DNA of 63,994 bases, counting the filler, from Basidiobolus ranarum (Eukaryota): NCBI GenBank assembly GCA_040143965.1. It is 4 parts of 4 records of this genome, joined end to end, with 100 filler letters (N's around TTAATTAATTAA, not from the genome) between each part and the next. Parts side by side here need not be neighbours in the genome. Positions count along the whole stretch, not along the records: positions 16,668 to 33,204 come from JASJQH010000339.1; 3 more parts are not named here. The stretch is one strand, 5' to 3'. Of this stretch, positions 11,118 to 44,668 are shown piece by piece. The translations under genes and the position numbers were made by a program. A model generated the notes under the pieces. It had not been told where the DNA came from and searched no databases. It saw only the letters and a program-made list of their open reading frames with translations. Each line of letters opens with the position of its first letter. Within the stretch, counting starts at the first letter, position 1.

Positions 11118-11805
11118 GATGACAGAAAAAATCGATTTCTCAACTAATTACCTCACCTTTATATATAGAATTTAATTTGGTCACGCTTCAGAAACGTTAA
11201 TGGTCATTTTGTGGGATGTGAATGAAATCATCAAATATAACATGTGCCTCAGGTCACGTGAAATGAGCAATGCGATGATTAGAAACTCTTACCTGTAATT
11301 CCTATGTTTTAATTTATCGAAGAACTGCGTTGCCATCTGAATAATTATCCACTAATTGGATGTATATTACAGCAATCACGAAACAGGTTTCCGGATCTGG
11401 GCATGATAGATAATGGTCCACTCAATATCATCTATACAGCCTGTACTGTAATCTATAGCACATATATGGAAAATGGCGGAATGGAGTTGCAGCAACGATC
11501 CTCCTATTTCAGGAAATTCTAGTTCTTGGCTTAAAGTTTCCAAACTTGGACCAGCAACAGGTAATTGAAAGTTGCGGTTCACACATTAATGTGGGTAATT
11601 AAGGAAGAATGCCTACCCTCTATTTTAATTCAAATCTTCAATCGAAGAATATTGAACACATTGATAATAGTTAAGTATCTTAAGGGCATAGATTTTATGA
11701 TTAGACTGTTACTTCAAAATAGCATTAATAGCGGGATAGGGGATTGGGGATTTTTCACTTCAGTAAATGAAGACAGAGCTTGTGACATGACCAACAAGGA
11801 GTTGT

Positions 11806-14748: not shown

Positions 14749-15560
14749 ATGGCTACTGAAATTCAATCGAATTTATTTGGAATAACTCCTTAGTGAGTGA
14801 TTCTTTTACACCCTTATCACTAGTATCTTTGGTGGTGTCGCTGGTTTTCATGATTTATATAGACCAACCGGTTGTACTCTTCAAGCCAATATCTTGGGCA
14901 CCTGGCATAGTCACTTCATTCTTGAGGAAGATGTGTTGGAGCTGGACTACACCATCGTAGCATATTCAGAGGGTACCTAGAAAAATAATGCCGCCGTAGC
15001 TACCAAATTGGACGAAAATGTAAAGGCTAAGTATGAACAAATATGTCATAAAGCCGCCAGAAACTGGTAATGATTGAGCATGTCGAATTTAATATCTTTG
15101 CGCATTACGTTGATCCTCTTGATAAGAATCATAATTGTTTTACTGAAATCAAAAACCAAAAGCTCAGACTTCTACCTGCTTCTGTTCAGCTTGAAGGGCG
15201 TACTACCAAAATGCATAGTATCGACCGAATAACCATTAAAGAGCATATATGTGATTGTACTCCCAATGTCATTGAGCCATCTTTCGGTATTGGTCGTATC
15301 TTGTATTCTTTAATAAAGCACACTTATTAGACTTGTGGCGATGTCGAAGAAAGATAAATTCTCGATTGGCGTTGCTCTCTTCAAATGTTTGGTTCTCTCT
15401 ATCCGCGACCAAGCTGAATTCCAGGGACCTCTTCAAAATTTGACTAGTAACTTTCGATGATTAGGAATCTCATCCAAAGCGACGATTCCTCCGCTTCTAT
15501 TGGTCGTTGTTATGCTCGTAGCAGCGGACTTGAAGCTCCATATGCCATTGATTTCCACCA
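14749..15560 (+). pseudogene. Decayed eukaryotic-type glycyl-tRNA synthetase (GRS1/GARS) pseudogene
   Basis: Fragments FFYT..IFGGVAGFHD, GCTLQANILGTWHSHFILEEDVLELD, TPNVIEPSFGIGRILYSL, DDSSASIGRCYAR match eukaryotic GlyRS, with stops, frameshifts and large deletions (no LRPETAQG). Confidence 0.88.
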
Positions 15561-16054
15561 TGTAATTATCGAAATATCACTCCTCTTCTCGCATGGTAGC
15601 AACTAAAATTCAGATCGACAGTATAAGCTATTTTAATGATTTACTCGAAGAATGTAAATCACGAAGTCGAAATAACCCTCAGTACACCATTGTTTCTAAT
15701 CCTTATATGCTCCAATTCTAGGATCTAAACGTAATAGAGTCTCTCAATTACAAAAGCAAGGAAAATCTTTATCCAAGTCAAGAGGGCATTTTAAATATAA
15801 AGGGATGATACTAAGATCTGTTAAGAAATAGTGACTCGCACGATGGAAAAAATCTTAGTTTCTTTCTGTTTGAACCTGTTTAAGGTTTTATTTATCTCGT
15901 GGTAGTAAGCTTCCAAGGGATTTCCATCCAGCCAAGAGTAGTTTTCTCTTGAAACAACTTGATGTCCGTATCATAAGGGGGTAATAAAGTAGCTACATAA
16001 ATTATATATCGAATCTACAGTTTTGAGATGTTTACAAGAAAGGAGAGAAACTGA

Positions 16055-16538
16055 CTAAAAAATGCCTCTTGAAAATGATACAAATAGAGAAAGAAAAAAA
16101 GTGAATAGAGGATTCAATATGATGATACTTGATGCATTTGAGGCGTTAGCATCAAATAGAGCGATAGGATCACCAACACTGAGTCTGATGTTTTTGTAGT
16201 AAGTGTAAGTATCGGCTGGCGTAGCATAATCAGGAGTATTTCCACCAAAGAACGTAGAGAACATTATACTGGAAATGCCGATTCCTTTTTCTTTTCTGAA
16301 AGGTATTTCCCTAATGTCTAGCCAGAGAGTGTCGTTCAGATACAGTTGTATAATACCATCTTCCTTACCAATAGTGTTTACTTGAATATAAAGAGCAACT
16401 CGATTCCAAGCACCTTTGTTAAAATCAAAGCCTCTACCAATACTTTGCCCATAAACATCATTACAAGTGATCATTGGATGAGAGCACAGCTTATCTTGAT
16501 TAGATATTGGAAACCGGTAATGCGCAACCATAGTATCC
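16055..16538 (-). CDS. Polysaccharide lyase family 14-like protein, last exon only (5' part lost in gap)
   Basis: CNDVYGQSIGRG, GAWNRVALYIQVNT.GKEDG, IMFSTFFGG motifs typical of PL14; hydrophobic C-terminus after NASNASS. Confidence 0.8.
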
Positions 16539-16567
16539 TGAAGAGAAAAATCTAACAGTAATGAATC

Positions 16568-16667
16568 NNNNNNNNNNNNNNNNNNNNNNNNNNNNNNNNN
16601 NNNNNNNNNNNTTAATTAATTAANNNNNNNNNNNNNNNNNNNNNNNNNNNNNNNNNNNNNNNNNNNN
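16568..16667. other. Assembly gap with synthetic TTAATTAATTAA linker
   Basis: N-run, 12-mer at 16612-16623 with stops in all six frames, N-run. Confidence 0.97.
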
Positions 16668-17751
16668 TTTGTTGCGGAAAACGGTTTCGGTTGGTCCTTG
16701 CCAACGATCCGGAAATCTATTCAGTACTGGATCATCAGAAGGACCCCAGTAGAATCGGATCTCTTTGCTACGAGTTTACAGACCGGGTCTCGTTATTGAG
16801 TCATCAGGTTTCGACTCAGCTGGTACATGAGCCCTTACTCAACCTCACTAAGCAAAGGTGATTAAGTGTGTATTGAACTTAAACAATCTCACTAATTGAG
16901 ATCAGACTGGTCCTGAGTCCGGATTTTGCCCAGGCTATAATTGCAAGGTTTCAAGTGCTCACAAAATAACAAAAGATACTGATCGATGTCTAAGACAGCT
17001 ACTGCGTCTACCGTCACTTCAATTCCTATGTTGCTACAGATACCTGAATACCGCGTCATCTGGGGGCCAAGATTCCCTATTTTGTAGGAAACCAGCAACG
17101 CCAAACGAGTTGCGCTGCATATCGTCTTGGCTCTTTTAACAGGCCTGCGTATTGCCTTTAACAGCATTAACACCTTGGCCCGTACAAGAAACTCGCAAAC
17201 CGGTGAATGCTACAAATGAAACTGAAGATGCGATCTCTGCCAGGATTCCATAGAATTCTCATTTGAAGTGATGATTTTCTGATACAAACAAAGCAACCAA
17301 TCGTCTGTTTGCTATATTAAAGTTGCTGGTCTCAATTCCAAAAGAGGCAGTACGTTGTTGACAACTGAGCAGTATTAATAGAATCGTGATCACATTACCT
17401 CTCGAAACAGTCGATTTCTCGCGTGGCTGTTGCCCAAGTGATTTCCTATACTTGCTGGGCTTGTCATACCATTACCATGGTTATCGACTAAATCAAAGGT
17501 TGCGGGCTAAGCTATCAAGATATCAATTATCCAGACAGTCCTACTACGGATTCACATGGACCTTCTAAATAGAATTAGGCAGTTACTGAACCAATATACG
17601 GATTTAGTAATATAACGGACGTTCCTATTGTTGACTACGTATTAAAACTTCTTGATCCATTGAAGGAAAACTCACCTTACTCTGTGGTCCCTGTTTTAAT
17701 CCTTTGTAACTTGCTGGCCAGTCGAAAAAACTTTACACTTTGTCCACAAAA

Positions 17752-18275
17752 ATGTAAGATTGCTCTTAAGATTCATTCACACATGTCTAAATCTCACCAA
17801 ATTTACTTCTGATAGGTCTTCCCCTTACGATTCAACTCCTAATGGCGAATCAAGCCCTCAGCCAGGTGGTAATAAAGCCAAAATTGTTCAGCAACAAGTT
17901 GATGATGTAGTGAACATTATGCAAGAAAATGTAAACCGAGTTATGGAACGTGGAGAACGTCTAGATACCCTCAATGATAAAGCTGGTAAGTTGAGCCGAA
18001 CCAACAGTTTCACTTAACTAGCGACTGAAGTTATCTATTTTTTATAGAGGACCTTGAATCTGGCGCTCTTCAATTCCGTCGCGGCGCCAATCGCGTTCGT
18101 AAAAATATGTGGTGGAAAAACTTCAAATTGAAGCTTATAATCATAGCCATTGTGATAATCGTCGCTTTAGCCATTATCAGTAAGCATAAATTTTAAAAAC
18201 ACATTCGCATTCCCTTTTGAACTTTGACTCATAAAACCTTATCTTCTAGTCCCTCTAGTGATCAAAAACAAATAA
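17752..18275 (+). CDS. SNC1: Synaptobrevin/VAMP R-SNARE (Snc1/Snc2-like); 4 exons
   Basis: Exons 17752-17753, 17816-17985, 18048-18179, 18250-18275. VQQQVDDVVNIMQENVNRVMERGERLD, MWWKN and a C-terminal TM helix. Confidence 0.93.
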
Positions 18276-20515
18276 AGGTCTACGTGGAATCGCCATGACC
18301 TAGATAGACTCTTTATCACAACTCGTGTCGTTTTCTTTGCGATCTCCTCACAACAAACGAAAACATTCAACCATACTTCCGAATTCTACCGTATATCTTT
18401 TTATTTAAGTCCCCAAATTCTTTACTGTGTATGATATCATCGTGTCTTCATTTCAACTTTAATGAGAGCAGTTATTCTTGTCAACAGCCTATATTCTTGA
18501 TGTAATAAATAAAACTCTTTGGAAGGCCCAAATCCAACAATCTTCCGTTGTGTCGTTTAGGCAAACAATCCAGCCGAACCATGTGTGGTATCTACCGTAG
18601 TTTTGCTCTTGACCTTGGATCAAAATAAAAGGCTCCAGTAAACACCTTAGGGTTAGTACACATGCATCTGGCAATAGGCCACTATCAGCATGTTCTATGA
18701 TCGTTGGTATCTGGAGTGTATCCCTACATGATGGTATCTGATTGTCGAAATTTAGGGGCCAATACTTTGGACTCATAGTTCGATCACATGAATGTTTGTA
18801 AGAGATATTGAGAACTAGAGTCTAGACTCTAATGATGACTTCTCCATACCTAATATCTCCATTTTAACCCCAGTGTGTGCATATCAAGGGCAGCATGCGG
18901 ATGAATCACAGCCAACATATGCTCAATGGACCTGAAAACACCTCATTGATCTCGAATCTGGAATCCCTAGTTATTGTTTAATCAGCTCAATGTATTTTGA
19001 CCAATGTTTCAGATATCTTAATATCCTTTCGGAAGAGGAATCTGAAGTTGCTGAACAAGGCTTCGGTTAAAGGGTGCTTGTTTCACTGGAAGGGTAAATT
19101 GATGATTCAATGGAAATCAATGAGAACCCATAGGGTCGTTTGTTCAATTGTCTTTTGAGACTACTGTGCAAATCTTCAATAAATTACATGAATAATTAAA
19201 AATCGTGTAGATGCGCTCAAATGTAGTGCAATATGTATTGATCTAAGCACCCTTGCCTGAGTGTTAACTTGGTGCTTACTACATCAAGACCTGACCTGGT
19301 CAAAGCAACTGTTGTAGTTCTTTTCATTGAACAGTCGAATGGAGTTGATTTCATATGGAAAACGTACCTCAACGATTGGAACTGTCTCATCTATCTTGAT
19401 GCTAATATCTTTCTCACTCTAGTGATCTTCTGGAATTCTTTGTTCTGTATCATCTGAATCTTGTACATTTACTCTCTGCTCAATAATATGTGTAGAGACG
19501 AGGTAAAATGGCTCAACAAAATGAAACACACCATAGCACAGTACATCCTTGTCAGATCGGAGAAAAGGCTGACTATGTCAATTATGCCGCACATTTAACC
19601 TGAGAACACCAGCACTTCAACTGGCCTACTGCCAGTTTTTGTCCAAGGAAACTCTAATCTTTCTACATTTAGTGTTAAGTGATGGTAAGGTTTCCAAATA
19701 ATCTGGACTATGATGTAGTCTACACAATGTCTTTTAGAACAGTCTCTATTTATTGGCAATATGTTATCACCTTCGTATTACTGATGGTACCTTCTTGATA
19801 GTTTATTTACATTCATCAAATACTCGTAAAATTTACTACCACACATAAGTTCGAAATTTTGTCTACAACATTTCCCCCTCAATAGTATGAAAAAACGCAA
19901 CATATAAAGGATTACGCTCGCCATGTAGACACTGATAAAGCTTAATAAATTGAATTGAACTATAGTATGGGCTACAATAATTTGTCTAAACCGATATGAC
20001 GAAATGCTTGCCTCTTATTACAATATTAAATGACATGAGAATGGTGTCGTCTTAGAGTCTGAAAGCCTCATATTTCCTTGGTGCATTACAGTTCCTCTAG
20101 CCTGGACGGCTTCTCTCCAATGAAAAGTGGAATGCTCGTAGTCACCAATCAAAATCTATGAATTGATTGACATAGTATGAGTGAAACAATTTCTCATTAT
20201 GGACATAAGGAAAAAAAGGGAGAAGTACAAGTAGAAACATAACCTTTCAATGCTTTATATTTAATCGAAAGCTCACTTTGAAAGCAGCATTGTCATCAAT
20301 GTTTCCCATTTCCTCAATGAAACATGCATTAATGCATCATTTCGAGATTAATTTCTTTTATATTTTTTTCTTTCTTGCGCTGACTTTTCTTTGAGCTGCC
20401 AACCTATCTTTCACGTGTTATTATTGTTCCTCTGTTTGTTTATTTTTCTTCATACAAGGATTTTTCAATATCACCAAGAGCTTAATTCAGAAACAATAGT
20501 GCATTGTCCTTCACC

Positions 20516-23500
20516 ATGTCCTATTCATTAGACTTTGATTACTCTAAAATATTCACAAAAGATATTTTGGAAACTCGTTCAAATATTGACGAATTTCTTC
20601 ACATCGTAACCGACGTAGATGAGAATCCAAAAAGTATTCATGCTTTCCTACCAAAACTTTGTTCGGCTGTTTTTGGTTCTCGTGAAAAAAGGTACTTTTA
20701 TAGTTGATTGTCTAAGAACCCTTACTGGAATGCTTATTTAAATATAATATTCAGAGGTTGGTTACACCGTCGTCTCACTCGCCAAGAAGAGAAAGCTATT
20801 TACGACTTGCTGCGACCCTCTTCACGCCTCTTCAAAGCCATAGTTCGCTTTCATACAGAACGAAATTTACTCTACGAGATTCTGCCGGATCGCTTACCTG
20901 TATACTAATTCAGTGAACCTAAATTTTAAGCTAATTATTAACGCGAATATTTTCACTTCGATTGTAGAGATCCATTCAAAACTCACTCACCTCTAACTCG
21001 TATGATACACTTCCGAATTATTACCGCGGTAAAGTTCAATTCGCCGACTCAAACCTAAATCAAACGAATTCCTCTTTATCAGGAAATGTAAAAAATGACG
21101 GAGTAAAGCTCATGTTCAGTATCCTTACTTACTAACAAAAATATCAATGATTTTATTGACTATCAACTTTTGTATTTTCCTTAACCAAACTTCTCAGACA
21201 TGCTTGAGTATTATTTGTTTTGCTTTTGCTACGTGATGACCGTGGATTTTCCTAACCAAGGTACCTCTCAATGGAGTAAGCCTGCTGTAATGGTATGTTC
21301 AGTTTCTTGTTCTTTGAGTACGCATAGCACACTAACCAAAAAAAAATTGTGTGTCTATACAGCCTGAAACCAACGATATGTACTCGCTTCATAACAACGT
21401 TGGGAGCTTCCCACAAACTATGGATAATAATGCTCAATATCAGCACAATATGCAAGCACAGAATGTGTATATCGAACTATTGCATGGATACATGGAATAT
21501 TTCATTCCCTATGGACCTCAAAAAGAAAAAACACAAAGAGACGGAGAAAAGTAAGTATTTACAACTTCCATGAACTTAAAGCCAGTACTTATCTTTCAAT
21601 CTAGAATTCAGCGTCCTTCCTACAATATCTTCACTGATAGGTAATGCTTCCATACATAAAAATGATTCCCTTAGTTTTATAACTCACATCCGTTTCATCC
21701 CATTAGCAATGTTAATTTTTCAGGAATGAAGAATGTAGAGTCTTCATTGGCATTGTCTGAATTTTTTGTAGGCACAGTATCTGAGCTTTGGTTCAAATAC
21801 TCAGAACGTTTCGAAGGCACTCGTGGGCGTCGTGCTTCATTCTCATCGGTTTGTATTTTTTCAATGTCGATGAAAGCTACCTAAAATATGCAACTTATGA
21901 TTTCTGTGTTTGAAAGATCAATCAACGCCCTTCAGTTGACTTGCTCCAGTGTATTAGCGATTTCATCAATCATTTAATTGGGGCCGATCTCAGATTTTCT
22001 TTTGCTCCCACCGAGGGAAAACTATGGGATAGCGATGATGGCGAGTTTTATCTACTTGTGAAGAAGTAATGGGTCATTGATTTTTGTCAAATTGAGAATT
22101 GTTACTCATTAATGTCAACTGTAGGACTGCTTATCATACATTACACCCACATCTGTACCAATTCCTTAAATCTTCAATGTCGTGGTGGCTGCTAGATGAT
22201 ACTTTTACCAATGTAAAATCTGCTTTATTTCATTAAGCGTGAGTTGATGTCTAATTGAGCATTTCTAATCCTACCGCAGATTGTAGATATTTGGCTGAAT
22301 TATATCTCACCTTGGGGATCTACCGGTCCGGCAGATAAAGACAAAGTCCTTAGCAAAGATTGGTAACTACTGATTCTGCGTCTTGTTTTACTTTATGGCC
22401 ATATTCATAATGTCGTAATTCGAATAGGATCCCTTTCATATTGGATAACTTTCTTTTCTACACCGAGATTTTCCGGAGATTTTTGGAACGTGCTGCCGAC
22501 TTAGAAATTGCAGAACCTGTTGATTTAGACGGAGATAGAAAATATTATGGCGCTCATCCTAGTCAAGGAGTAATTGCCAAACTTTCCCCCAAATCCAATG
22601 TCAGAATGATCAGAAGAGTTCTCAAATTATTCCGTACAATAGGTTTACACGAATACCTTCGTGGAAGTATGTAATTCATCACAGCTTCTCCAAATGTTAG
22701 CACTTTAACTAATGAACTTCTAGTCGAGTTGTTTATCATGTCACCCGATTATGCCTCTTCGTATCCCACGAACCTTTATCGCCATCAAAATTCACAATTC
22801 CCACAGGCAGATCCGCTTGCTCAATTTGGTTTGGACTCTAAACTGTTGAGTATGTATGGAGCTACTGTCAGACAACACATCAATAATTTAGAAGGTCCAC
22901 AATTTGAGTATAAACCAATTTTCCACGACTCGACAAAAGATACCGTAAGCAAACATATTCCTGATATTCAGTGTCCCCACTATTTACTCAACGACTTGTG
23001 GTCATACCTAGATCAAAATTCTTATTGCCAAGATTACTGTAGCCCTCGAGAAGCGTAACAAAATCTTGAACCCCGAGGCTCAACCAGCTCATCATGAATC
23101 TCAAAGTCTGTACCACAAAATCTTTGATTTTACCAAAAAAGCGGTTCAAGGAAACGATGAAGAAGCGTGGAAAGGCAGTTTAGTAAGACAAAAAGCCCGC
23201 CTAGAGACCATTTTAAGATTGATTGGCGAGCTCTTTGATGTATGCAATTGGAATTTTGCTCAACTCACTTTACAAATAGAAGTCTGACCTTCATGTTTTG
23301 ATTAGATTACCGATAAAGATTGGCAAGATTTGAATTTATCTCCTTCACTTGCCAATTTGCAAATCACCCCTGGTGTTCAAACTCCTGAATTCTTTTCTGA
23401 AGACCCCACGCATTTGACTCAACGAGGACGGACACAGGTACATCTCTATGTATTTCATGCACAGCCCCCGAAAACACTTTCTTAACTATAACTCCTTAGG

Positions 23501-23860
23501 TTAAGCTTGGTCTCCGCAAATGCTCCAAATACGATGTTCCAATTATTGGAGATAGAGGAGATTTGATTGTTAGATCCTACGAAAGTGCTACCTTGGTGGA
23601 TCTCACTCGCTGGTTAGATATGCATGCTGACCACTATGTAAGTTTAGTAATTCGCTTTTCTTGAAACGTTCCACTTATGAACCTTTGTTTTATAGTACAA
23701 AGAATTAATTCGATACCTGATCGAACAAAAGCAAATCCAAGTACCACAGAGCCTTCGCACTTTTCCATTTTCATTCCGTTTCTTTGCGGCTTACCCGAAT
23801 CTACTGTTTTTATTCATCTCTTGGTTATTTTATCGAATCTTTTGTTTTATCTTCTTCTGA
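20516..23860 (+). CDS. SMPD4: Sphingomyelin phosphodiesterase 4 (SMPD4/nSMase3)-like protein, many exons
   Basis: Spliced motifs FLPKLCSAVFG, GW, FNMLEYYLFCF, DIWLNYISPW, DNFLFYT, LTQRGRTQVKLGLRKC, VRSYESATLV, FRFFAAY and a C-terminal TM segment match the SMPD4 family layout. Confidence 0.8.
21119..21197 (+). other. U12-type (minor) GT-AG intron in SMPD4-like gene
   Basis: 5' site GTATCCTTAC, branch TTCCTTAAC at 21177-21185, CAG at 21195-21197; splicing gives MFNMLEYY. Confidence 0.92.
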
Positions 23861-24447
23861 ATGCTTTCCCTTACACTTTTGAATTTATTAGCTATTTTAG
23901 TCACAACCTTCCTCCAAACCCACATATTTAAACGTTCTTGTATGGGTTAAATTCACTTTTTCAACCTTTAAACAGTAAAGCATATGTTGATGTGCCAATG
24001 AGAGTAGAAACCATTTCTATTTTTATAACTTGCCTAGCAAAACGCACTGGTTGCAGCTTCTTGTTTCCATTTGTATTGGAATTGATTTAAAGTTCAGTGC
24101 ATTCATGAAAGAAAAAGGGATGGAGCCACGAACCCACTTTAATAGTTAGTGTTTGTTGGCCTCTTGTAAAGACAATTTCACCAACATTTTATCGAGCGAA
24201 CTCGAAGAAAACCATGCGCTTTAATACGTAGGTCGGGTCTTGCCTAAAAAATCCGAAGGGTTTATTAGGGATAATTAAAATAGATTTCATGAAAATAATT
24301 TGACTAAATATTAATTCCCGAGTAAACCAAACTCTACCATCTTCCTAAAATAGGACCAAACCTATCTTCTGTCTTAAATTATTTGACAAGGAAAATTTCT
24401 ACTTCAACTTTGTTCAAGAGGTTAAGCCACTCTAGTAAACTGTAGCC

Positions 24448-26162
24448 ATGTCGAAAAGTACGGGGCTAATGCGTAATTTGATAGAATTATGTAAACGTAG
24501 AGGTTTTCTATTTCAGTCAGCTGAAATTCACGGTGGTCTTCGTGGGGCTTATGATTACGGACCACTTGGTGTTGAGCTTAAGCGTAACCTTTCTGAAGCT
24601 TGGTGGTCAGATATGGTGTATAAAAAAGATAACGTGGTTGGTGTGGATACTTCTATCATCACACCACCTGGCGTTTTCAAAGCTTCTGGTCATCTGGAAT
24701 CTTTCACTGACGCATTGGTCGATTGTAAACTTTCTAAGGAGAGATTCCGTGCTGATAAAGCTCCCCCCATCACAGTCATAGAGAAAAATGGTCGAAAGTT
24801 ACTCCCTATCGCTGCTCCTGATAAGGCCATTGCTAAAAATTGGGAACAGGAAATTCAGCAACTTTTACCCGGCATCACAGTTAATCGTCAAGGTAAGGAA
24901 CTCACGTTGCCTGTGATTGAACTTCAGAATCCTGCCTCCGTGGAGACAGCTGAATCCAATCCAGGAAAAATTCTATTCGAAGGAAAGGATGCCACTGTTG
25001 AGTTGGCTTATCATGGTTATGTTGAACCGAATAGCAATTCACCGTTTTTAACCGAAAGTCGACCATTTAATTTGATGTTTAAAACCTTTCTGGACCCCAT
25101 TGATCCTATAGAAAGGGTAATGACTACCACACTAGCCGAGTCTAAAGAAACTGATAATGTCAAACAGTTGCGTCAATCGGTTGATAACGAACTAGCTGGA
25201 TCCACAGTCTTTCTTCGACCCGAAACTGCACAAGGAGTTTTCGTGAATTTCTTAACCTGTCAACGCACACAAAAACTTCGGCCACCTTTTGGTATTGCCC
25301 AAATAGGGAAATCGTTTCGTAACGAGATTCGTCTTGAACACGCGATCTTTCGTACTCCAGAATTCGAACAGATGGAGTTGGAATATTTCGTTCCACCTGA
25401 GGAGGATTCTAAATGGCTTTCTTATTGGACTGAGGAACGGTTCAGCTGGTGGAAGCGCTTCGCTAATCATCCAGAAAATTTCCGCCAACGTCCTCATGAA
25501 AAACATGAGCTTGCTCATTATGCTAAAGGCTGCGTAGATGTGGAGTATAAATTCCCTTGGGGCTGGGGAGAAGTAGAAGGGTGGCAAATAGAGGGGATTA
25601 TGACCTTAAGCAACACTCGGAACATTCTGGAATCCGTCTTGACTATAGTGAAGACTCGAAGGATTTGATTACAGAAGGCGGGGAGAGTAGAACTGAAAAA
25701 CGAACATATACTCCTTACGTAATCGAATCATCTTGCGGCTTAAACCGTGCTCTTCTTGCGTACCTTGTCGATGCCTATAGTGAGGATAGCGTTATTGACC
25801 CTACCACCGGTAAGAGCGCAAAGAGACCTTTACTTCGACTTCATCCACAATTGGCGCCGATTAAGGTGGCGGTTATGCCACTGATGCCTAAGCCTGAGCT
25901 CCTGCCACTCGCCAAACAGCTTGTGAAGGCGTTCCGTCGTGAACGGATCAATGTTCGTATGGAGGACCAGAATCTTAAAATTGGTAAACGGTACTACCGA
26001 CATGATGAGGTCGGTACCCCTTGGTGTGTCACGGTGGACTATCAATCTCTAGATGACAATATGATCACCATCCGTGATAGAGATACGATGGAGCAAAAAC
26101 GAGTTAGTATAGAAGATGTAGTAGAGTTGGTCAAAACCAATTTGAGAGATCGAGATGACTAG
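24448..26162 (+). CDS. glyQS: Bacterial-type homodimeric (alpha2) glycyl-tRNA synthetase, intronless, with a -1 frame break near 25580
   Basis: LCKRRGFLFQSAEIHGG..GAYDYGPLGVELKRN, ASGHLESFTD.LVDC, FNLMFKT, LRPETAQG, GIAQIGKSFRNEI, EFEQMELEYF. Second frame continues VANRGDYDLKQH, PYVIESSCGLNR, anticodon domain IGKRYYRHDEVGTPWCVTVD. Confidence 0.9.
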
Positions 26163-28041
26163 ACATTGTATATTCTTGATGTTTATTTCATTCTTCATAC
26201 CGCCTTCATTTTATTTAGCAGATTTCATACACCATTCCATCACTTCCTTTGTCGTGGAATTCTGTTCATCCTTTACATCGACCACAAAGAGTAGTACACT
26301 ATATTCCATTGATAAATTTAACCTTTAAACACAACGTAGACGAGAGTCTCCTTAATTGTCTGATAAATCGATTCTTCGATAGCATTTTTTTATCCAACGC
26401 CAAGGAGCAGCTCCTTTCTATATACACAGAACCGTAACAGTTGAGGACAAAGTTTGGGCATTAGGAGAGAGCTATTATTTACGATGTTTAGCCAGTTCTG
26501 TATTTGTAGTTAGTCAATGGCTCTTGTTTCATGTCGCTTCCAGCATTAGTGGGGTATTTCTGCCATTTTCACCGCCTGTGGTTATAAAGAAGTCAAGAGC
26601 ACATTGGACATAAAAACGTCCAAAAATCTTTATGCCAACGTAAGACTGTCTAGTAAGAGAAATTTTGAGTTTCAAATGAGTGTAGTCTTATCGTAGACCG
26701 ACAGCTTAGCTGATGGATCGTAATCACTATTGTAACGAGGTTGTGTTTTGTAATTACTATTAGGTAGCTTCATGGCCGATAGATACCAAACTATACTTAG
26801 ACAATGGGAAAGATTTCAACAGCATTATGCTGTTCTGGTGGAAATGATAGGAAAATAAGCGCCCCAAAACCTAGGGGCAGTAGTAAAAATCAGCTTAGCT
26901 AGATCTACTTGTATGTAAGCCAAATCAAGAATAGATCGTTGCCTATGACCCTGGAGAGACTCTCCCTTTAAAACGCTTGATTCCATTTAAAGTATCCCAT
27001 CTGTATAAAGATGAGGCATGAACCGGTTTAAGGCCATGAGTATTGGTTGCTTTTCTTGGAGCTGAGGCCTATAATCTCGATTCGGTGCAAGCCTAACCCT
27101 AAGGTAACGTTTGAAAACACCGGAACATTTATAAATATGTAGTCCCATTTAATTGTCATGTCTGCGCCAATGGTTATTAGTCACTGGCAGTCGAACAGAT
27201 TCAATATTAAATGAGTTGCATTGAAAACAAGCCCAATGCTCTACAATACATCTTCCATTTGAATATACACGCTGGTTCCGTAGCCAAGAGTCAAGATCTT
27301 AGCCAGTGATCTTTCATCTAATCGCGTGAACCCATACCAGGTCCTTTTCTGTGCCAACCTTACTGGAGGGCGTATTGTTACAACTGCTACATTCTGCTTA
27401 TGTGTCCCGTTGGCGCAGTATCGTCTTATCCCACTAGAGCGTTGCCTGGTTTATTCCCTACGCAGGCCAAGTGGTGATCCTCTGTTCATATCGACCTCCG
27501 TGGTGCATTCCCTGACCCAAGCGAGCCCAATTTCAGCCGATTTGTCAAGTGCCACTTATACGGACTGAGTATTGTCATCTTTGATTGATGATTCTGCTAA
27601 TGCTACTGACTCTTTCTACTAGAACTGACATCCAATCACAGCTTGGATATTGGCTATTGTGACGAATTCGTCTATGCGATTGCCATATAAAATAGAATGA
27701 TTGGAGAATGTCAACATAGTTCTTCTCATAAAGGAGCTTATTACAAAAATAGGAGTTCAAATCGACGAGCTAGAAATAGGAGTTAAATCCGGAATCATTT
27801 GCATAATTATCCTTTGTTTACCCATTCCACTAGTTGAACTCCTCATCTTTCGTAACCTTTGAGCCACACCACTTAAACACGGTCTTTTAAGTTGTTGTGC
27901 TTCACTCATCCCCTCCCAAGTAACTTGCAATACTCTTTCCTTTATAACAGATCTACTTAACGGTTGTCTTTCCGCTTAGCTATTTCCCTCAGTTTATTCA
28001 TACCGATACCTTCTCTTCCTCCATAACCTTAGCTCAAGAAA

Positions 28042-29424
28042 ATGCCTAAGGAGCCAAAGAAACGTACCGGCTTCCTCAACACATTAGAACCAGAACAAAA
28101 AGTCGCCTTAGACGAGCTATGGAGGGTGTTGTTCGAGAAATTCGAAACTAATGATGTAGAGGAAACCGAATCTCCTACTGATAACACCACCGAAGCCAAT
28201 AGAAAGTCTGGGTTCGGAAAGTTCTTTCATAGAAACAAAACTGAGAAAGAGGAGGCCAAGCAAACCAAAAACCCTAGCCCTGAACCAGAAACTCTGGCTA
28301 ACCAACAAAGTTTGAGAGAGAGTTTCTGGAGATTTGTATTGGGTGACCACCCAGACTCCATCCTGTTGCGCTACCTAAGAGCTCGTAAATTCAACGTGAG
28401 TAAAGCTTCGAAAATGTTGATGAGCACTCTGAAGTGGCGTATTCAAAACGATGTCACTGGTATCATCGAGAAGGGAGAAAAAATCGTTAGCACTCACGTA
28501 CTTCAAATCGGAAAAGGATACTTGTACGGAGTGGATAAAGAGGGTAGACCAGTTAGGTAAATTGAATTCACTTTGTATTTCTACTACGCAAACGTTGCCG
28601 GATACCCAGTTGAAGTTGCGTTTCTTGCTCGGATAATTGTAAATTCTAATCGTTGAAATATTTGCCGTGTAGTTTTTGTCATGTTCGACTCCACAACAAG
28701 GAGGATGAGCCTATCGAAGAGCTTGAGAAATTCACCATTTGGTTGATGGAGACTGCGCGGTTATTCTTGATTCCACCGGCTGATTGTGTCTCCGTTGTGT
28801 TTGACATGAAAGATTTCTCGCTTAGTAACATGGACTATCCTTTTGTCTCCTTCATGAACAAGGTTTTGGAGAGTCACTATCCTGAGAGTTTAGGAGTGGC
28901 CTTAATATTGGGAGCTCCCTGGGTATTTTCTGGTACATTTTTATGCTAGTTTCTCATCGATGTGATGTGAACATTCAAATCTAACCTGGTTTCTAGGTGT
29001 GTGGAAGGTTGTCTCTCCCCTGCTCGACCCCGTTGTCGCTAGCAAAGTACAGTTTTTGGACAAGTCAGAAGATCTGCGAAAGTACATCGAGCCCAATATG
29101 CTACTGAAACAATTCGGTGGGGAGAATCCTTACGAGTTTAAATTCATCCCACCACAAGCAGGAGAAAACGATATCATGAATGATACAGAAGCAAAAGCTC
29201 AAGCCTATGAGCAATGGTGGAAATCAATCGATCATTTCGAGCAAGTAACCAGATTGCGACTTGCCACCCCAAGCCCGGAGGTTGAAGCACAAAGAGAAGC
29301 TTCTGCTCAGCAGCTACGTGCTGATTACTTCAAGCTAGATCCATATATTCGTGCTAGAACAGTTTACCATCGTTTAGGAATTCTTCAAAACGACGGATCA
29401 GTCAACTGGCAGGCACGCGCTTAA
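28042..29424 (+). CDS. CRAL-TRIO/Sec14-family lipid transfer protein (Csr1/Sfh2-like); 3 exons
   Basis: Introns 28557-28672 and 28933-28996. DHPDSILLRYLRARKFNV, DKEGRPV, FDMKDFSLSNMDY, HYPESLG, LDPVVASKV, LDPYIRART. Confidence 0.93.
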
Positions 29425-31290
29425 ATTAATTCCACTTGATTAGCTAAATACATCGCCCGTGTCTCTTCGTTGAAGCCCTGCCCTGGGTAACCTCTTTACT
29501 TTACTCCTTGTTAAACCGAAGCGTACCTCTCTTTGTATTGAACCTAAAAAGATAAATAAACCGGATTTACAATATCCGTGATGCCTTATACTCGCGTGTT
29601 TTATTCCCTCAAGCACCAATTCGATCTTGTGTGATGAGTGCACTAGGGCGCACAGTGGCAACACAGTTTCTGATGACCAAAAATGCAACAATAGTTCACA
29701 TAGCGTAAAATGCAAACAGAAGATATTTTTGGGGTGCGTAGTATTGTTCGCTGATATAATCATTGTGTCGGTTGTACTGATTAAGTCACCACTCAACAGT
29801 CCCTCAGGAGTTAAGCCATACGCTTTCTGAATTGCTCCACTTTCATCAACACTTTAACATATGGAACTGAAAGTACGACTATTGAGCATACAGATAAGCG
29901 AAAGCCCAAAAAGTTAGCCAAGTCCTAAGGCTGGAACCTAGTAATTGCATTTAGAGTACAACAATCTGTTACACATTTCGGAAGGAGTGTCATCTGCCAT
30001 AGCCGTTATCTAAACCATAGATTCGTTGGTTCATTGTGTATGAAATATCCAACCAAGTAACTTTAAACTTTTATTGGTTTTAATATATCTTATTCTTGTT
30101 TAGTATCTTCTACAGTGTTGGTTGAGGTTCCTTGGGTCAATAGAAATATATTAACTACAGATGAGCGTCACTTGCGGCTTGTTTGCCAAGCAGTAGATTA
30201 ACAACCAGATGGCTATATGCCCATTTATCGCATCAGTTATGAGCAGTCATATAATATGCACACAATGCGTCTCTCTTAGATGACTTGGTATTATTGGTAT
30301 GTATATGCACTACTCTTAACAATGTCACTACAAAACAACTCAAGTGCAATAAAATATCAATTCTGCATCATGCACTTTCCATCTAACTGCTACTCATCCC
30401 AATGACCCAAAATATGCAAAATCCTGTTGAATCTCAATGACTTGGTGCTTCGATATTAGCCACGGCTCAGGTGTAAGGAATGCTTTCTCAGTATTGCCAG
30501 TCAGCCCTGCTTCTATACATCTGATTATTTCATATGTTGACAAAGTTAACCAAGGTTCATTAGTCAACTGAGGATATAATTCAGTATATATGAATTATCC
30601 AAGATTTAGCAAAGTAAGAGTAGAAATCCCAAAGAACATCAAATTAGCCCCACAGCAATTTACCTCACTCTTAGTATTGTTTAAACAATATACATTCTTT
30701 TGTTTTCAATGCTACTCTCAAAGGTATATATTAGTCAATCAATACATGCCAATTCAAAAGAAACACTCAAAAAACTCTTGGATCTCACTAAAATTCACTG
30801 TATAGATGAGACCACCAACTTTCTGTTAAAGTATTTGGGAGCCTGTTGGAAGTGGTTTAGAAAATTAGAGATATTGGTGGTTTTCACTTGTTGCTATTTA
30901 CCTAATTTCAGCATTCCTACCTAACTAATTATTTTGTATTTCTTTAAACCTAACTTATATCTTAATACTTCAAGTTGTGCTTTAGCTAAAGGTCTGGTTA
31001 AGATGCCAGATATTGTTTCTTCAGCAGGGCAATAGACAAGTTCAATTATATCATTTTCTTGTTGAAGTGTTTGGGAGTCTGTAGGAAGTTATTTGGAGAA
31101 TTTGAGGATTTGGTAGTTTTCACTTATTGATTTATTGAGTAGAAAGTTGACATTTAGAGTTTTGTCAAGATATAAACAAAATAACATGTAGAATATGTTA
31201 AGGAAGGTCCCAGTAACATGTGTGCACAGTTTGGGGCTTCTAGAACGGGTTTGAAAAAATCTATATATCTGAGAGCTTCCAAGTTGGTGT

Positions 31291-31410
31291 CAATATTCTA
31301 AGTAAATTCCGATGGAGAATAATAGGTAATATCTTAGGGAAATATAAGATAACTAAATACTAAGCTATCTATGACTCTATAGGTGTTTAGGCAATGCCAA
31401 TTTCAACAGT
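31291..31410 (+). repeat. Dispersed repeat homologous to 63297-63416 (inside the Copia LTR); probably part of a solo LTR of about 31196-31808
   Basis: Shared blocks AGTAAATTC, TAATATCTTAG, TACTAAGCTAT, TATAGGTGTTTAGGCAATGC are collinear in both copies. Confidence 0.8.
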
Positions 31411-33049
31411 AATGACATTTGTTAGATTTTTGAGGAGTGCTTTGCAGCAACAGGGACTACAGTTTTGATACACTTAAACTTAGCTATAGAGGCAATGTTG
31501 GAGATGACATAGCTTAAGGATCTATATAATCATATAGTTAGCTACCTAAATTTCACTAGGCTATTATTCAATATCTTCATGAGAAATTTACTTAGAAGTG
31601 CTCAGATTATATCATTTTCTCATACTTGTCCAAAAGATTCCAAACTTTATACAAATTCCTGAGACCTTCCTGACCATATTCTACACATTGGCTTATTTAC
31701 TTGAAAATAGTATAAATGTTAACTTACACTAAATAAATCGTTGAGTGGAAACCACCAACTCTTCTAGTTCTCCAAATCACATCCGACAACTCCCAAAACA
31801 CTTCAACAATATAAGTGTGTAAATTGATGTGCACCCAAATTTAAAAACAGGGTGTCCATCTCTTGCTATCGTTGTAGTGCAGTTACAGAATGTTGGCATG
31901 ATGTTTATTCTCATGGATCTTGCCTCTTCGCAAGATTGGTTGCCAGGTTGATAAACTCCTTTACTGCACATGCTTATCGATACTACGTTGTTACGCCTGA
32001 CAAAACTGGGTACTATTACCACGGAATTATCATTAGGCAAGTTGTTCTAGCACTATGGCGCATAGTAAGTGTAATACCATAGCCGTGTCTTGGGAATTAC
32101 TTGGTCACAGACTTGGAGACATTCCATCTCCAAATTCACAAGCTGCGATGTTTCTAGACAGACCTAGGTGCAATTTGGTCTGGTAATAAAATATAGTACT
32201 CCCGCATCTTCCTCCGAGATCTGGCAGAGTAGAATAAGCCATATGACATTAATTTACTGAGTATGAGTGGTATGCCAGTATGTTTATTAAACACACCCAC
32301 AATTTCTTGGCTTATTTATATTGCACATTTTGAATTCACGATCCTATAAATGCATTACGAGTAGGTCAGGAAGTACCATGCTTATCTAATAAACACAATT
32401 GTAATATCTGTATTCAGCATATATTTTGTAGAGGTTGTATAAGGGCTCAGACTTCTCTCTAGTAAGAATGTCGTGCACAACATTTGAATGATGGAGATTT
32501 AAGATATGCTTGTTGTTGATCATCAATGGCTCAATAGTGGTCTAAGATACAGAAATAAGAATATCTTGTTGTTTAATGCAGAGAGTATGTTATGTGGTTT
32601 ACTGTGGTTATTGATGAATATCAATTCAAATTATTTTCCCTAATTTGGGATATAGGCTTTGATGCATGAAATAGATACCTTTGTGGGGCTATTATCCAAG
32701 AACCTTTATCCAAGAGCTACTATCTGTCTTTGTCATAGTATGCTGTACTAAAGGCATTTGATAAGCATCTTTCTAGCTTAAACATTACCGCTCGAATTAT
32801 CGGGGTCATTCGAAAAACTTTCCACTTTACTATGATTGTAAATAAAGATGTACATCTAATCGACATATTTAGGGTTATTCTCCAGATGTGTGCTTTTATA
32901 GTGGACTGCTACCGCTTGAAAGTATTGGTTGAGTGCATTATTATTTTTATCGTCAGTGAAAAATGCCTGCCAAAATAGTAATAACTTTGTCTTTGAAAGT
33001 TAATAAAAAAAACAAATTTTGACTCTCACTTTTCATATTCCCTACTTGA

Positions 33050-33204
33050 GACGCATTTATAAAGAAGGAGGTCAGGTAAATGTGTTTGCTGGGGGTGATA
33101 TGCCAAATGCTGCTGCTAATATGGTCGAGGCATTTGAAAAGAAATTTCCAGGAACAAAGCTCAATATTACAGTGAATCTTAGCAAATACTACGATGAATT
33201 GATT
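33050..33204 (+). CDS. Fragment of an ABC-type periplasmic solute-binding-protein homologue, cut by the gap
   Basis: YKEGGQVNVFAGGD...AFEKKFPGTKLNITVNLSKYYD resembles the N-terminus of the fungal/bacterial Fe3+/thiamine-type SBP family. No start codon identified. Confidence 0.65.
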
Positions 33205-33303
33205 NNNNNNNNNNNNNNNNNNNNNNNNNNNNNNNNNNNNNNNNNNNNTTAATTAATTAANNNNNNNNNNNNNNNNNNNNNNNNNNNNNNNNNNNNNNNN
33301 NNN
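33205..33303. other. Assembly gap with synthetic TTAATTAATTAA linker
   Basis: Linker at 33249-33260 between N-runs. Confidence 0.97.
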
Positions 33304-34093
33304 NGGGCTGTTAGTGACCGCCTACTGGACTTACCCCCGCCGTATCACCAATACAATAACAACTCAATCGAGACACTTGATTTGATTTACCTTTGGTTCC
33401 AGCAATCTCCGTAGCTTGTATCTCTCAAATACTATGTTATCTGTGTAAAACATGACGCTGCTAGTACCAAATTCGGTAAACTCTAACTCGAATGCTGATT
33501 CATATCAGTGCGATCGCAAAACATCCTAATTCCATTGCAATGCCCACATCCCCTCTCCATCAGGGGCAGGAATTCGGTGGAAAATGATCGAGACTGCTCA
33601 CAAATGGCATTGGCATCTGGTGGGATTGTGAGCACTGTCAGCCTGGGAGCAATGTGGTATCCTCGCATACACTCAACTGGAATGGCTTAACCTTCTGGTC
33701 TCAAGAGCATTCGGTCCAGACCGAGCAGCTATCAAGACATCTCTTGAATAGTGGGATCCGATCTAAATGGATTATCCGATAACATCTGCCACTCATTCGG
33801 ATTAATATACTGCAACTCCACCCCACCTCAGTGTATTACATCCCTGGGATCCTGATTTGATTTTGCGCCGCCTATAAAAGTCACTATGGCTCTTGAAATA
33901 AATAAGCTTGTGACAATCGTTACTGCGATTTTTTTATCATCCCTAGGTTTTGTGTGCTCCTTGCGTGATATTGACTCCCTTCACCTGCACTAGTTGAGCC
34001 ATTTTAACGAGGCTATCTTAATTGAAGACTGTTTATTGGATTCCTTTAGCTCGTGAATACACTCCCTCTAGCCTTTGTATATTTCTATTTTAA

Positions 34094-35671
34094 ATGAACT
34101 CGGTCTCAGAACCTGACCTAGCCAAATCTTCCACTTGGCCCAAAAGGAGGGTTTTTTTACGCTCCCCCTCTCCTAACCCGCTATTAGAGACACCCAAATG
34201 TCCAGAGTTAGCGAAATATGCCAAAGTAGCATCTGAAACCAGCAGTAATTCGGATAGTGCTCTTCTTGTTCCCGAAGCTAAGAAGTGTGCTGAACAATCT
34301 CAGAATACTCCGGTTCAATTGAAAAGCCCAAGTAAAACACCCACGCTAGCTGAGCAAAGCTCGTTAAAACAGAAGAAAGAGCCGGTCATAAAATCCAGAA
34401 AGCCCACACTGACTATACCTATACCCCGAACACTGGTGCGAAAAAAAAGTGGCGAGGTTGTAAAGTCAGCCTTAAAGGGAAGAGTCCGCTCTATGCCAAC
34501 AACACCGACGAAGTTTGTCCATTTTGGTGCCAAGTTGGAACAAGTTAAGCTATTTCAGAAAGAACAAAAACCAGAATCCATATCCAATCCAGTGTCCGAT
34601 GATGAAGAAGGATACTCATCCGACGAAGATACTGAATATGAATTAACTACCAGACTTCCCAATTTCCCACCTCCTATTTTCTCCAGATCTATCTACAACT
34701 CCAAAACCATTTCTGTGGATATGATTCAGTTGTCTGAAGACAAACGAGATCTCGTGGGAACTTTACAAGTCCAAAACTTGGCCTTTCGTAAGGTTGTCGC
34801 CGTTCGATACACCTTTGATTTCTGGAGAACTGTGGAAGAAGTCGTAGCAGACTTCAAAGAGTCACCTGTCAAACCATGCCCGCAATTTGTAGGAATTGAT
34901 AGATTTTCATTCACCATTAACTTGGAAAATCGAGTCAGCTTTTCGCCGACATCACCCAAAAAAACCATGTTTTTCGCTGTGAGGTATCAAGTCAATAACC
35001 AGGAGTACTGGGATAATAATGATGGAATGAACTACCAGGTAGATCTTGTCTACTCCAAACCTTATCGCTTCCAAGCTTGGCCATTTGACCTTGGAACTGC
35101 GAATACTATCATTTCACCAGACTCCGGCCGCATAGCCTCCGCCAACACTCGAAACTCGACGTTTGGATTTGAATCACCGGAGCCCCCTGTACTATCGAAT
35201 GGTCACAACAATAGCTTTGGTGCCAGATATGATTTTGGAATCGCTCTATCAACACCAGGCGAAAGCGACCAAACCACTTTCGAGAAGATCACAACCATAG
35301 GAGCTGCTGATCGAGACGTCACGCCTGATTCAGTGAATTCCATTCACAATCTTAAGCCGAAATCTTCCCTGGCCAGCCTCTTCGCTCATCCCCCTTACAA
35401 GTCCTACGAACCACCTAATTCCAATGGCATTGTTCCATGGGATGAGCAGCCAGTCTCTTGGGATGGATACGATAACTATACTACCGATTATATCAGTAGT
35501 CCCAATAGTACGACCTTTACTAGTCCTGTCCCAATTCCAGTTAAAAATAGTACCTCCAACCGAGGAGGCCGGCATTCAGGTGAAGATGAACAATCTTACT
35601 CCTCTGGACTATACTCTGGGCCCACATTCAACAGCTACTCATCCTCACCAGTTTCGCGTATCCGCGGATAA
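34094..35671 (+). CDS. Glycogen-targeting PP1 regulatory subunit with CBM21 domain (Gac1/PPP1R3-like), intronless
   Basis: RKKSGEVVKSALK, RVxF-type KFVHF, GTLQVQNLAFRKVVAVRYTFDFW, FAVRYQVNNQEYWDNNDGMNY. Confidence 0.92.
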   Translation: MNSVSEPDLAKSSTWPKRRVFLRSPSPNPLLETPKCPELAKYAKVASETSSNSDSALLVPEAKKCAEQSQNTPVQLKSPSKTPTLAEQSSLKQKKEPVIKSRKPTLTIPIPRTLVRKKSGEVVKSALKGRVRSMPTTPTKFVHFGAKLEQVKLFQKEQKPESISNPVSDDEEGYSSDEDTEYELTTRLPNFPPPIFSRSIYNSKTISVDMIQLSEDKRDLVGTLQVQNLAFRKVVAVRYTFDFWRTVEEVVADFKESPVKPCPQFVGIDRFSFTINLENRVSFSPTSPKKTMFFAVRYQVNNQEYWDNNDGMNYQVDLVYSKPYRFQAWPFDLGTANTIISPDSGRIASANTRNSTFGFESPEPPVLSNGHNNSFGARYDFGIALSTPGESDQTTFEKITTIGAADRDVTPDSVNSIHNLKPKSSLASLFAHPPYKSYEPPNSNGIVPWDEQPVSWDGYDNYTTDYISSPNSTTFTSPVPIPVKNSTSNRGGRHSGEDEQSYSSGLYSGPTFNSYSSSPVSRIRG

Positions 35672-40006: not shown

Positions 40007-44643
<4,637 letters not shown>

Positions 44644-44668
44644 ATTTTGTGATATAGTAGAACGCAAC

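Follow-up and report, generated by a model that had tools for sequence, protein, structure and literature searches.

A Frameshifted Ortholog of a Probably Ancient Bacterial-Type Glycyl-tRNA Synthetase in the Fungus Basidiobolus ranarum

Introduction

In yeast and animals, one eukaryote-type glycyl-tRNA synthetase (GlyRS) serves both the cytosol and the mitochondria. Here, we analyzed a 63,994-nucleotide stretch of the genome assembly of the fungus Basidiobolus ranarum (GCA_040143965.1), referred to below as the window, in which an earlier note, starting from the same premise about yeast and animals, had pointed to a bacterial-type GlyRS gene. The coding region, delimited by open reading frame (ORF) calls and the sequence itself, spans 24448–26162 on the plus strand and lies on contig JASJQH010000339.1. 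We report that this locus is probably the Basidiobolus ortholog of an old nuclear GlyRS of the bacterial alpha2 type, which would have been acquired in the opisthokont ancestor and is likely mitochondrial, and that a single missing base disrupts its reading frame in this assembly.

Several described systems come close to this one. Plants and Vitrella are reported to have a second, bacterial-origin GlyRS for their organelles beside a eukaryote-type cytosolic one (PMC6723311). That enzyme is, however, of the (alpha-beta)2 kind with fused glyQ/glyS, an architecture unrelated to the alpha2 glyQS type found here (PMC6723311). A closer parallel is the jakobid Andalucia godoyi, for which a report describes a nuclear-encoded, bacterial alpha2-type GlyRS that is assigned to mitochondria and charges A73 and U73 tRNA-Gly alike, a tolerance that would suit the mitochondrial tRNA-Gly, which carries A73 (PMC8754408). 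We liken the Andalucia enzyme to the Basidiobolus one by description; it is absent from the named full-length profile matches listed in our search. A separate mitochondrial or cytosolic GlyRS lineage is also stated to have been lost early in eukaryotes (PMC4558845). In a published data set that includes Creolimax and Capsaspora, bacterial-like matches are reported to have been filtered out as contaminants. We found no description of a bacterial-type GlyRS in fungi or holozoans in the literature, although Figure S1 of PMC4558845 and Figure S6 of PMC8754408 may show one.

Results and Discussion

A Bacterial Alpha2-Type GlyRS

The coding region is read in two parts on the plus strand. Part 1 (24448..25581, Met1 to Gly378) comprises the N-terminal helix, class II motifs 1 and 2, and a clade-specific insertion between them, and ends in FPWGWGEVEG. 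Part 2 (25581..26162, Val to the stop) comprises VANRGDYDLKQH, motif 3 (IESSCGLNRA), and the HGTP anticodon-binding domain. All of the GlyRS motifs that the earlier note had quoted were found in the sequence (LCKRRGF, YDYGPLGVELKRN, ASGH..FTD.LVDC, FPWGWGEVEG, and VANRGDYDLKQH).

Part 1 alone scored 315.9 bits against the NCBIfam equivalog model NF003211 (glycine--tRNA ligase; cutoff 312), and part 2 scored 197.8 bits over profile positions 290–453 of 454. With TIGR00389, the scores were 256.5 bits (cutoff 243.3) and 167.3 bits, respectively. Part 2 matched the HGTP anticodon-binding domain PF03129 with 83.2 bits over positions 1–93 of 94; the Pfam class II core stayed below threshold (24.6 bits vs. 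a gathering score of 29.3). When the PDB was searched with the sequence of part 1, Thermus GlyRS (1ati) scored 234 bits compared with 128 bits for human GlyRS, and three further chains titled glycine--tRNA ligase, one of them from Mycobacterium thermoresistibile, scored 229–233 bits.

The structural evidence points the same way. An AlphaFold2 (AF2) model of part 1, built from a 37-row alignment, had a predicted local distance difference test score (pLDDT) of 90.1, and a fold search with it placed GlyRS at the top (5z5e, Z 19.3, root-mean-square deviation (rmsd) 3.5 over 262 aligned residues; 2pme, Z 17.1). Furthermore, the window residues conform to the 35 columns that are invariant in the 37-row alignment A3, including RPE..Q (R257, P258, E259, Q262), RNE (R291, N292, E293), and EF.Q.E (E305, F306, Q308, E310), and IESSCGLNR of motif 3 was found in part 2. 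With a score above a curated hidden Markov model (HMM) cutoff, a class II fold carrying the motif 2 and motif 3 residues, an HGTP domain, and a position in the tree with bacterial glyQS, this GlyRS is genuinely of the bacterial alpha2 (glyQS) type; NF003211, TIGR00389, the PDB scores, and the tree all agree with the type that the earlier note had assigned. Judged by its sequence, and leaving the frameshift aside, the region would code for a working synthetase. The predicted activity is the ATP-dependent activation of glycine and the charging of tRNA-Gly; all of the family-invariant columns are kept.

By HMM, PDB sequence match, and fold, the bacterial alpha2 GlyRS of Thermus thermophilus (1ati) belongs to the same family, and in both enzymes the class II core precedes the HGTP anticodon-binding domain. 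Unlike its bacterial counterparts, the Basidiobolus gene is encoded in the nucleus of a eukaryote, is frameshifted here, and carries an insertion of ~120–150 residues that is common to just one bacterial subclade. The eukaryotic GRS1/GARS1 enzymes catalyze the same reaction within the same distant alpha2 GlyRS superfamily (27–36% identity in tblastn) but form a separate clade, as is also apparent from the human and Thermus scores above.

Orthologs across Opisthokonts

The closest database protein in a word-indexed search was the glycyl-tRNA synthetase of B. meristosporus (P0002, 89% identity), followed, among the matches listed, by about 80 clusters at 53–65% identity from Mucorales, Mortierellales, Umbelopsis, Endogonales (Jimgerdemannia), Calcarisporiella, and Dimargaris. 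The Blastocladiomycota (Paraphysoderma, Sorochytrium) had 47–53% identity, and bacterial proteins (Marinimicrobia, Myxococcota) entered the list at ~52%. Scanning a single genome for each prokaryote species yielded more than 570 bacterial loci, the best being an uncultured bacterium (49%) and metagenome-assembled genomes (MAGs) of Acidobacteriota (46%) and Planctomycetota (46%); in metagenome contigs, at least 595 related stretches were found, with the best locus being 43% identical.

A search of 1.84 billion representatives with a profile built from 14 fungal sequences added the fungi Massospora, Conidiobolus, Dispira, and Catenaria, as well as Fonticula alba. It also added Holozoa, namely the ichthyosporeans Amoebidium, Creolimax, and Chromosphaera, together with Capsaspora and the calcareous sponge Sycon ciliatum. 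Across the fungal lineages, Fonticula, and Holozoa, the orthologs are 44–65% identical. Several of the fungal ones lie on contigs of 1.9–7.3 Mb, and that of Sycon lies on a 34-Mb contig. Among early-diverging fungi, a survey of which the earlier note had proposed, orthologs occur in Mucoromycota, Dimargaritales, Entomophthorales, and Blastocladiomycota. By motif typing, 115 of the 118 proteins P0003–P0120 could be classified, 84 as fungal-type and 31 as bacterial. These lists of relatives hold the best 120 or 150 matches, and the absence of a taxon means that it was not seen among them.

Two holozoan members deserve a remark of their own. The Sycon protein (P0297, 543 aa) is a divergent member of the clade, with RPELAQA replacing RPETAQG. 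No other animal homolog was seen among the best 120 matches to it; the next matches had 34–38% identity, the named ones being mostly bacterial, and an ESM Atlas look-up with the sponge protein returned bacterial GlyRS clusters alone. In Chromosphaera perkinsii, P0269 has 1473 aa, and the bacterial-type GlyRS is its C-terminal part (about residues 850–1471), a fusion that may be a gene-model artifact.

A tree was computed with IQ-TREE under LG+C20+F+G4 with posterior mean site frequencies (PMSF) from 63 rows and 545 columns, leaving out some rows of earlier sets as well as L039, which had a branch of 10 in an earlier quick tree. Support is given as ultrafast bootstrap (UFBoot)/Shimodaira–Hasegawa-like approximate likelihood ratio test (SH-aLRT). 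The five eukaryote-type GRS1 sequences used as the outgroup were separated at 100/100 by a branch of 1.57 + 1.57 (about 3.1 substitutions per site), so the gene is not nested in eukaryotic GARS, in line with the expectation of the earlier note. The 29 opisthokont bacterial-type rows, together with P0085, formed one clade (99/96), which was united at 100/100 with a bacterial sister clade of 11 rows (Planctomycetota, Acidobacteriota, Marinimicrobia, Myxococcota, and others; 100/99). Holomycota and P0085 grouped at 95/93, in the order Fonticula, fungi, and then Basidiobolus with Mucoromycota. Here, Fonticula was joined by two further sequences (100/98), the 20 fungal rows held together at 97/88, and the Basidiobolus pair (100/100) was placed with Mucoromycota at 96/94. 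Several rows of the tree have a deviant amino-acid composition; quick trees from other row sets gave the same picture.

We read this pattern as a single old acquisition with vertical inheritance thereafter, and not as a transfer into Basidiobolus. In the course of events that we propose, a bacterium related to the GlyRS clade of Planctomycetota, Acidobacteriota, Marinimicrobia, and Myxococcota would have donated the gene to the opisthokont ancestor, and the insertion that separates motif 1 from motif 2 is present in the bacterial clade on the donor side as well. Vertical inheritance would have followed, with survival in the non-Dikarya fungi, Fonticula, Ichthyosporea, Capsaspora, and at least one sponge, and the predicted task of the enzyme would be to charge the mitochondrial tRNA-Gly.

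Some features of the tree and of the lists weigh against this scenario. The base of Holozoa (Sycon, two ichthyosporeans, and Capsaspora with Chromosphaera and one more) is unresolved, the Sycon branch is long (1.82), and P0085, which falls inside the opisthokont clade, could be bacterial. The root was placed on the long outgroup branch. Dikarya, Glomeromycotina, chytrids, choanoflagellates, and most animals were not seen among the best 120 or 150 matches, which does not make the gene absent from them.

A One-Base Frameshift

The gene is intronless, as the earlier note had stated, because, apart from one lesion, it is colinear and gap-free with B. meristosporus P0002 throughout the coding region. 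The single reading frame that the note had presumed does not exist: the region is divided between an ORF at 24448..25668 and another, in a different frame, at 25557..26162, with no uninterrupted full-length GlyRS frame. The first, whose stop-to-stop ORF starts at 24439 and which is present in the protein database as P0001 (406 residues), reads as far as FPWGWGEVEG and then continues out of frame until its stop. The second encodes VANRGDYDLKQH and the remainder of the GlyRS. Likewise, the tblastn pieces of the region lie in frames +1 and +3 and overlap at 25579–25581.

The break can be placed precisely. The DNA reads GAA GGG TGG CAA, where Gly-Val-Ala would require GGG GTG GCA. One G has been lost from the G-run at 25579..25581 (plus strand), leaving the GGG run one base short, and the downstream reading requires a −1 shift. 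The B. meristosporus ortholog P0002 is unbroken at this site (EVEGVANRGDYDL, EVEGVANRG). An intron cannot explain the change of frame because the protein sequence is complete up to the break and again from the break onward, with a single base being common to both readings. No exact match to the pattern of the frameshift site, with one or two bases permitted at the break, was found in metagenome contigs. Nor was an A-rich tail, a sign of retrocopies, found in the 540 nt 3′ of the GlyRS stop, and a retrocopy origin is unsupported.

The frameshift is the sole lesion in 571 codons, which contain neither another stop nor another indel. The part 5′ of the break matches P0002 at 288/322 residues (89.4%), and the part 3′ of it at 174/193 (90.2%; Fisher p = 0.88). 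Because the downstream sequence is as conserved as the upstream sequence, the frameshift would be either an assembly or allelic artifact or a very recent inactivation.

Could this copy be a true pseudogene, with a real and fixed deletion, a product truncated behind its catalytic-core half, and a function covered by GRS1 or by another copy? Of the alternatives to an ortholog that is functional in the species, this one survives best, and we hold it to be a tentative but real possibility. Besides the two ORFs in different frames, the exons of the synaptobrevin and CRAL-TRIO genes on the same contig read cleanly and have canonical introns; therefore, a general indel error is not indicated. Furthermore, contigs of ~16.5 kb in descending order of size suggest a short-read assembly, in which homopolymer errors would be rare, and a second, intact copy from this assembly was not seen among the best 120 matches. 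On the other hand, a single lesion in 571 codons, undiminished conservation 3′ of the break, and an intact site in the sister species speak for an artifact or a very young lesion, and the tree shows that the gene has been retained across very deep divergences. We consider a real lesion and an artifact to be nearly equally probable, and what is left beside a fixed pseudogene is an assembly error or one broken allele.

Predicted Cellular Role

Which compartment would a second GlyRS serve? Intact eukaryote-type GRS1 occurs beside the bacterial-type gene in B. meristosporus (P0121) and B. ranarum (P0122), and it is also complete in Sorochytrium, Umbelopsis, Mortierella, Calcarisporiella, Dimargaris, and others. 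With a complete GRS1 of the eukaryotic type already present in these genomes, the charging of mitochondrial tRNA-Gly would be the most likely task, and we favor, with reasonable though not high confidence, a role as the mitochondrial GlyRS of these lineages, a possibility that the earlier note had raised and that is plausible.

The N-termini bear on this assignment in both directions. The orthologs of Creolimax and Capsaspora, as well as P0257, have presequence-like extensions of 27–86 residues that are rich in Arg, Ala, and Ser, with lengths of 60–86 residues in the holozoan orthologs. Telling against mitochondrial import, the fungal orthologs, including that of the window, start 8–15 residues before the first conserved motif. 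None of the 84 fungal-type rows showed a presequence in its model, the sole outlier being P0030 with 38 residues. In the window, an in-frame TAA (24436..24438, plus strand) lies three codons, or 9 nt, 5′ of the ATG, and given this stop, an N-terminal extension is impossible within the GlyRS exon as it is read here. With no fungal presequence and a stop upstream, any import would depend on a signal that is internal or stays uncleaved.

The composition of the fungal N-termini is compatible with such an uncleaved signal, without demonstrating one. The mean distance from Met to KRRGF is 11.8 residues in the 84 fungal-type proteins compared with 15.7 in the 31 bacterial ones. Of the former, 6/84 have an acidic residue among their first eight positions, compared with 27/31 of the latter, and the mean numbers of Arg (1.18 vs. 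0.10) and Lys (0.24 vs. 1.84) differ as well. As for the eukaryote-type enzyme, the GRS1 models of early-diverging fungi start 16–23 residues before the first motif, and several models from Basidiomycota or others (e.g., P0167, P0180, P0218, P0234, P0237, and P0238) have 50–70 extra, presequence-like Arg/Ser-rich residues and an internal Met, which would be as expected under dual targeting.

The alternative, that the enzyme is not mitochondrial and is a second cytosolic GlyRS or has a non-canonical role, draws on the missing extension in the fungal orthologs and on the stop just 5′ of the ATG. We consider it unlikely, although it is the main rival to a mitochondrial assignment. The holozoan orthologs have presequence-like extensions, the fungal N-termini have moved toward more Arg and fewer acidic residues relative to those of the bacterial sister clade, and the same taxa also possess a complete cytosolic GRS1 that lacks a presequence. 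In addition, the Andalucia report provides a precedent for a mitochondrial enzyme of this type (PMC8754408).

Origin of the Gene

A mitochondrial enzyme of bacterial type could also descend from the alphaproteobacterial ancestor of mitochondria rather than from an unrelated bacterium. The presumed mitochondrial role would fit such an endosymbiotic origin, as would the bacterial alpha2-type mitochondrial GlyRS reported for a jakobid (PMC8754408). However, the named members of the bacterial sister clade are MAGs of Planctomycetota, Acidobacteriota, Marinimicrobia, and Myxococcota, with none being alphaproteobacterial, and no non-opisthokont eukaryote occurs among the named full-length, single-stretch profile matches listed. 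Consequently, we consider an endosymbiotic origin to be very improbable.

The earlier note had proposed a horizontally acquired second GlyRS. Its bacterial ancestry and its presence beside an intact GRS1 are borne out, but a recent or lineage-specific acquisition is not. Such a recent bacterial transfer into Basidiobolus is suggested at first sight by an intronless gene among intron-bearing neighbors and by its clearly bacterial type. Nevertheless, orthologs at 44–65% identity are present in many fungal lineages, Fonticula, and Holozoa, and they form one opisthokont-wide clade (99/96) in which Basidiobolus is nested with Mucoromycota (96/94). The closest bacteria are just 49–56% identical, the GC content at third codon positions (GC3) of the gene is 0.375 and falls inside the 0.29–0.51 of the neighboring genes, and the Mb-scale contigs of other eukaryotic orthologs speak against contaminants. 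A recent transfer is, in our view, extremely unlikely.

The Insertion and a Possible Link to POLG2

The insertion domain, delimited by alignments, occupies the interval between motifs 1 and 2 (24718..25080, plus strand; VDCKLSKERFRADKAP ... YHGYVEPNSNSPFL). It is common to the eukaryotic bacterial-type GlyRS and occurs in a shorter form in one bacterial subclade, their sister clade; in the Planctomycetota-like P0083 and P0087, it is nearly full length. In Myxococcota-type members, the insertion is bordered by CxxC...CxxC (VDCKVCKERF ... YVCPNCGSP), in place of which the window has VDCKLSKERF ... EPNSNSP; three of the four border cysteines are lost in the eukaryotic members (alignment A4). Folded alone by AF2, the insertion gave a small alpha/beta domain (pLDDT 93.0). 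A PDB sequence search with it found no match at E < 0.5, POLG2 chains included (best E 0.57), and in a structure search against 48,161 chains, none of which reached Z 5, the best match had Z 4.9 with an rmsd of 2.6 (52 aligned). A relative of the modeled insertion is thus not found in the PDB searches, which does not make the fold new.

Animal POLG2 derives from a GlyRS and has lost the catalytic residues. This accessory subunit of pol gamma is reported to occur in Metazoa only, to share homology with the aminoacyl-tRNA synthetases of class II, and also to be without the residues needed for class II synthetase dimerization (PMC4419789). For its origin, PMC4419789 cites Wolf and Koonin (2001), whose account would be a separate transfer from Thermus-Deinococcus bacteria that is specific to animals. 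We compared full-length GlyRS queries with the mouse and human POLG2 chains of the PDB by phmmer, the scores being distances and not a phylogeny. Two GlyRS proteins from outside the insertion-bearing clade scored 60/60 bits (Lysinibacillus; mouse/human) and 86/80 bits (Isosphaeraceae). Inside the clade, the scores were 150/148 bits for Marinimicrobia, 151/145 bits for Amoebidium, 131/123 bits for Sycon, 121/124 bits for Umbelopsis, and 106/111 bits for Capsaspora. By these scores, POLG2 appears to lie distinctly nearer to the clade with the insertion than to either of the controls from outside it.

It is therefore conceivable, and we offer it tentatively, that POLG2 is a duplicated descendant, devoid of the original function, of the resident mitochondrion-directed bacterial-type GlyRS of opisthokonts, the window gene being a surviving fungal copy. 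The sponge Sycon counts in favor, as one animal that retains a GlyRS-like member of the clade. Against it, a separate transfer of POLG2 from the same bacterial subclade fits the scores equally well because those of the bacterial representative are no lower than those of the Holozoa. POLG2, which is mitochondrial, resembles the window protein in its family match (85–90 bits with part 1; fold Z 15.5–15.9). However, POLG2 is not a synthetase, whereas the window gene is fungal and keeps the family-invariant catalytic columns, and it is accordingly no POLG2 itself.

Genomic Context

The window is composed of four contigs (1–16567, 16668–33204, 33305–49790, and 49891–63994, with sizes of 16,567, 16,537, 16,486, and 14,104 bp), which are separated by artificial joints of 44 N, TTAATTAATTAA, and 44 N at 16568–16667, 33205–33304, and 49791–49890. 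The GlyRS contig (16668–33204) is bounded by the joint at 16568..16667 on the left and the joint at 33205..33304 on the right, and its 16,537 bp agree exactly with the length that the protein database gives for the contig of P0001. As the four contigs are unlinked, distances or linkage across the joints are meaningless.

Upstream on the GlyRS contig lies a synaptobrevin gene (17700..18193, plus strand) with two exon ORFs (PF00957, E 9.8e-13 and 9.7e-14) and an intron of ~63 nt (GTAAGT...TATAG, about 17986–18048). Downstream lies a Sec14-like CRAL-TRIO gene (28033..29421, plus strand; PF03765, E 3.1e-16; PF00650, E 1.4e-22 and 2.3e-10) with three exon ORFs and GT..AG introns at about 28557–28671 and 28934–28997. 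Because it is flanked by these spliced genes, the GlyRS gene is located, as assembled, in fungal nuclear DNA. Bacterial contaminant DNA or a chimeric contig is an extremely unlikely explanation, given spliced eukaryotic genes on both sides within one N-free contig and nearest relatives that are fungal proteins (89% identity to B. meristosporus).

Of the two spliced neighbors named in the earlier note, the CRAL-TRIO gene is indeed spliced and on the same contig; for the other, SMPD4, the sole hint is a sub-threshold match to Pfam PF14724 (E 0.033, 12.5 bits, 22411–22671). A string of short ORFs 5′ of the GlyRS (20486–23485, plus strand) is presumably what the note had meant by SMPD4.

A degenerate eukaryote-type GlyRS pseudogene, which the note had placed at 14.7 kb, is real (14759..15564, plus strand), as found by tblastn with the B. 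meristosporus GRS1 P0121, but linkage to the bacterial-type gene is not supported. As the pseudogene is on the first contig (1–16567), its apparent spacing of 10 kb from the GlyRS is an artifact of concatenation. The pieces correspond to residues 5–74 (65% identity), 142–162, 178–191, 243–317, and 475–600 of P0121, with residues 5–600 compressed into ~800 bp that contain stops, frame changes, and large internal deletions and show no visible introns; human GARS is its PDB match (E 6.5e-11). It may be a processed copy, and the functional Basidiobolus GRS1 is located elsewhere (P0121, P0122). On the same contig, a polysaccharide lyase family 14 ORF (16058–16567, minus strand; PF21294, E 1.3e-31, positions 107–215 of 215) is truncated by the contig end.

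Conclusions

The gene itself is not new, as its orthologs are annotated publicly as glycyl-tRNA synthetase, and the window alone offers an ordinary ortholog with an unexplained one-base defect, so that the news it brings is modest. The wider pattern is of more consequence. Many non-Dikarya fungi, Fonticula, unicellular holozoans, and a sponge still have a second GlyRS, of bacterial type, which makes the family a case for studying when a dedicated organellar synthetase stays and when dual targeting replaces it. The gene is also a candidate marker, whose loss would separate Dikarya from the earlier fungal lineages. Finally, the family is a concrete candidate for the ancestor of POLG2, and both this lead and the wider distribution merit a dedicated phylogenetic study.

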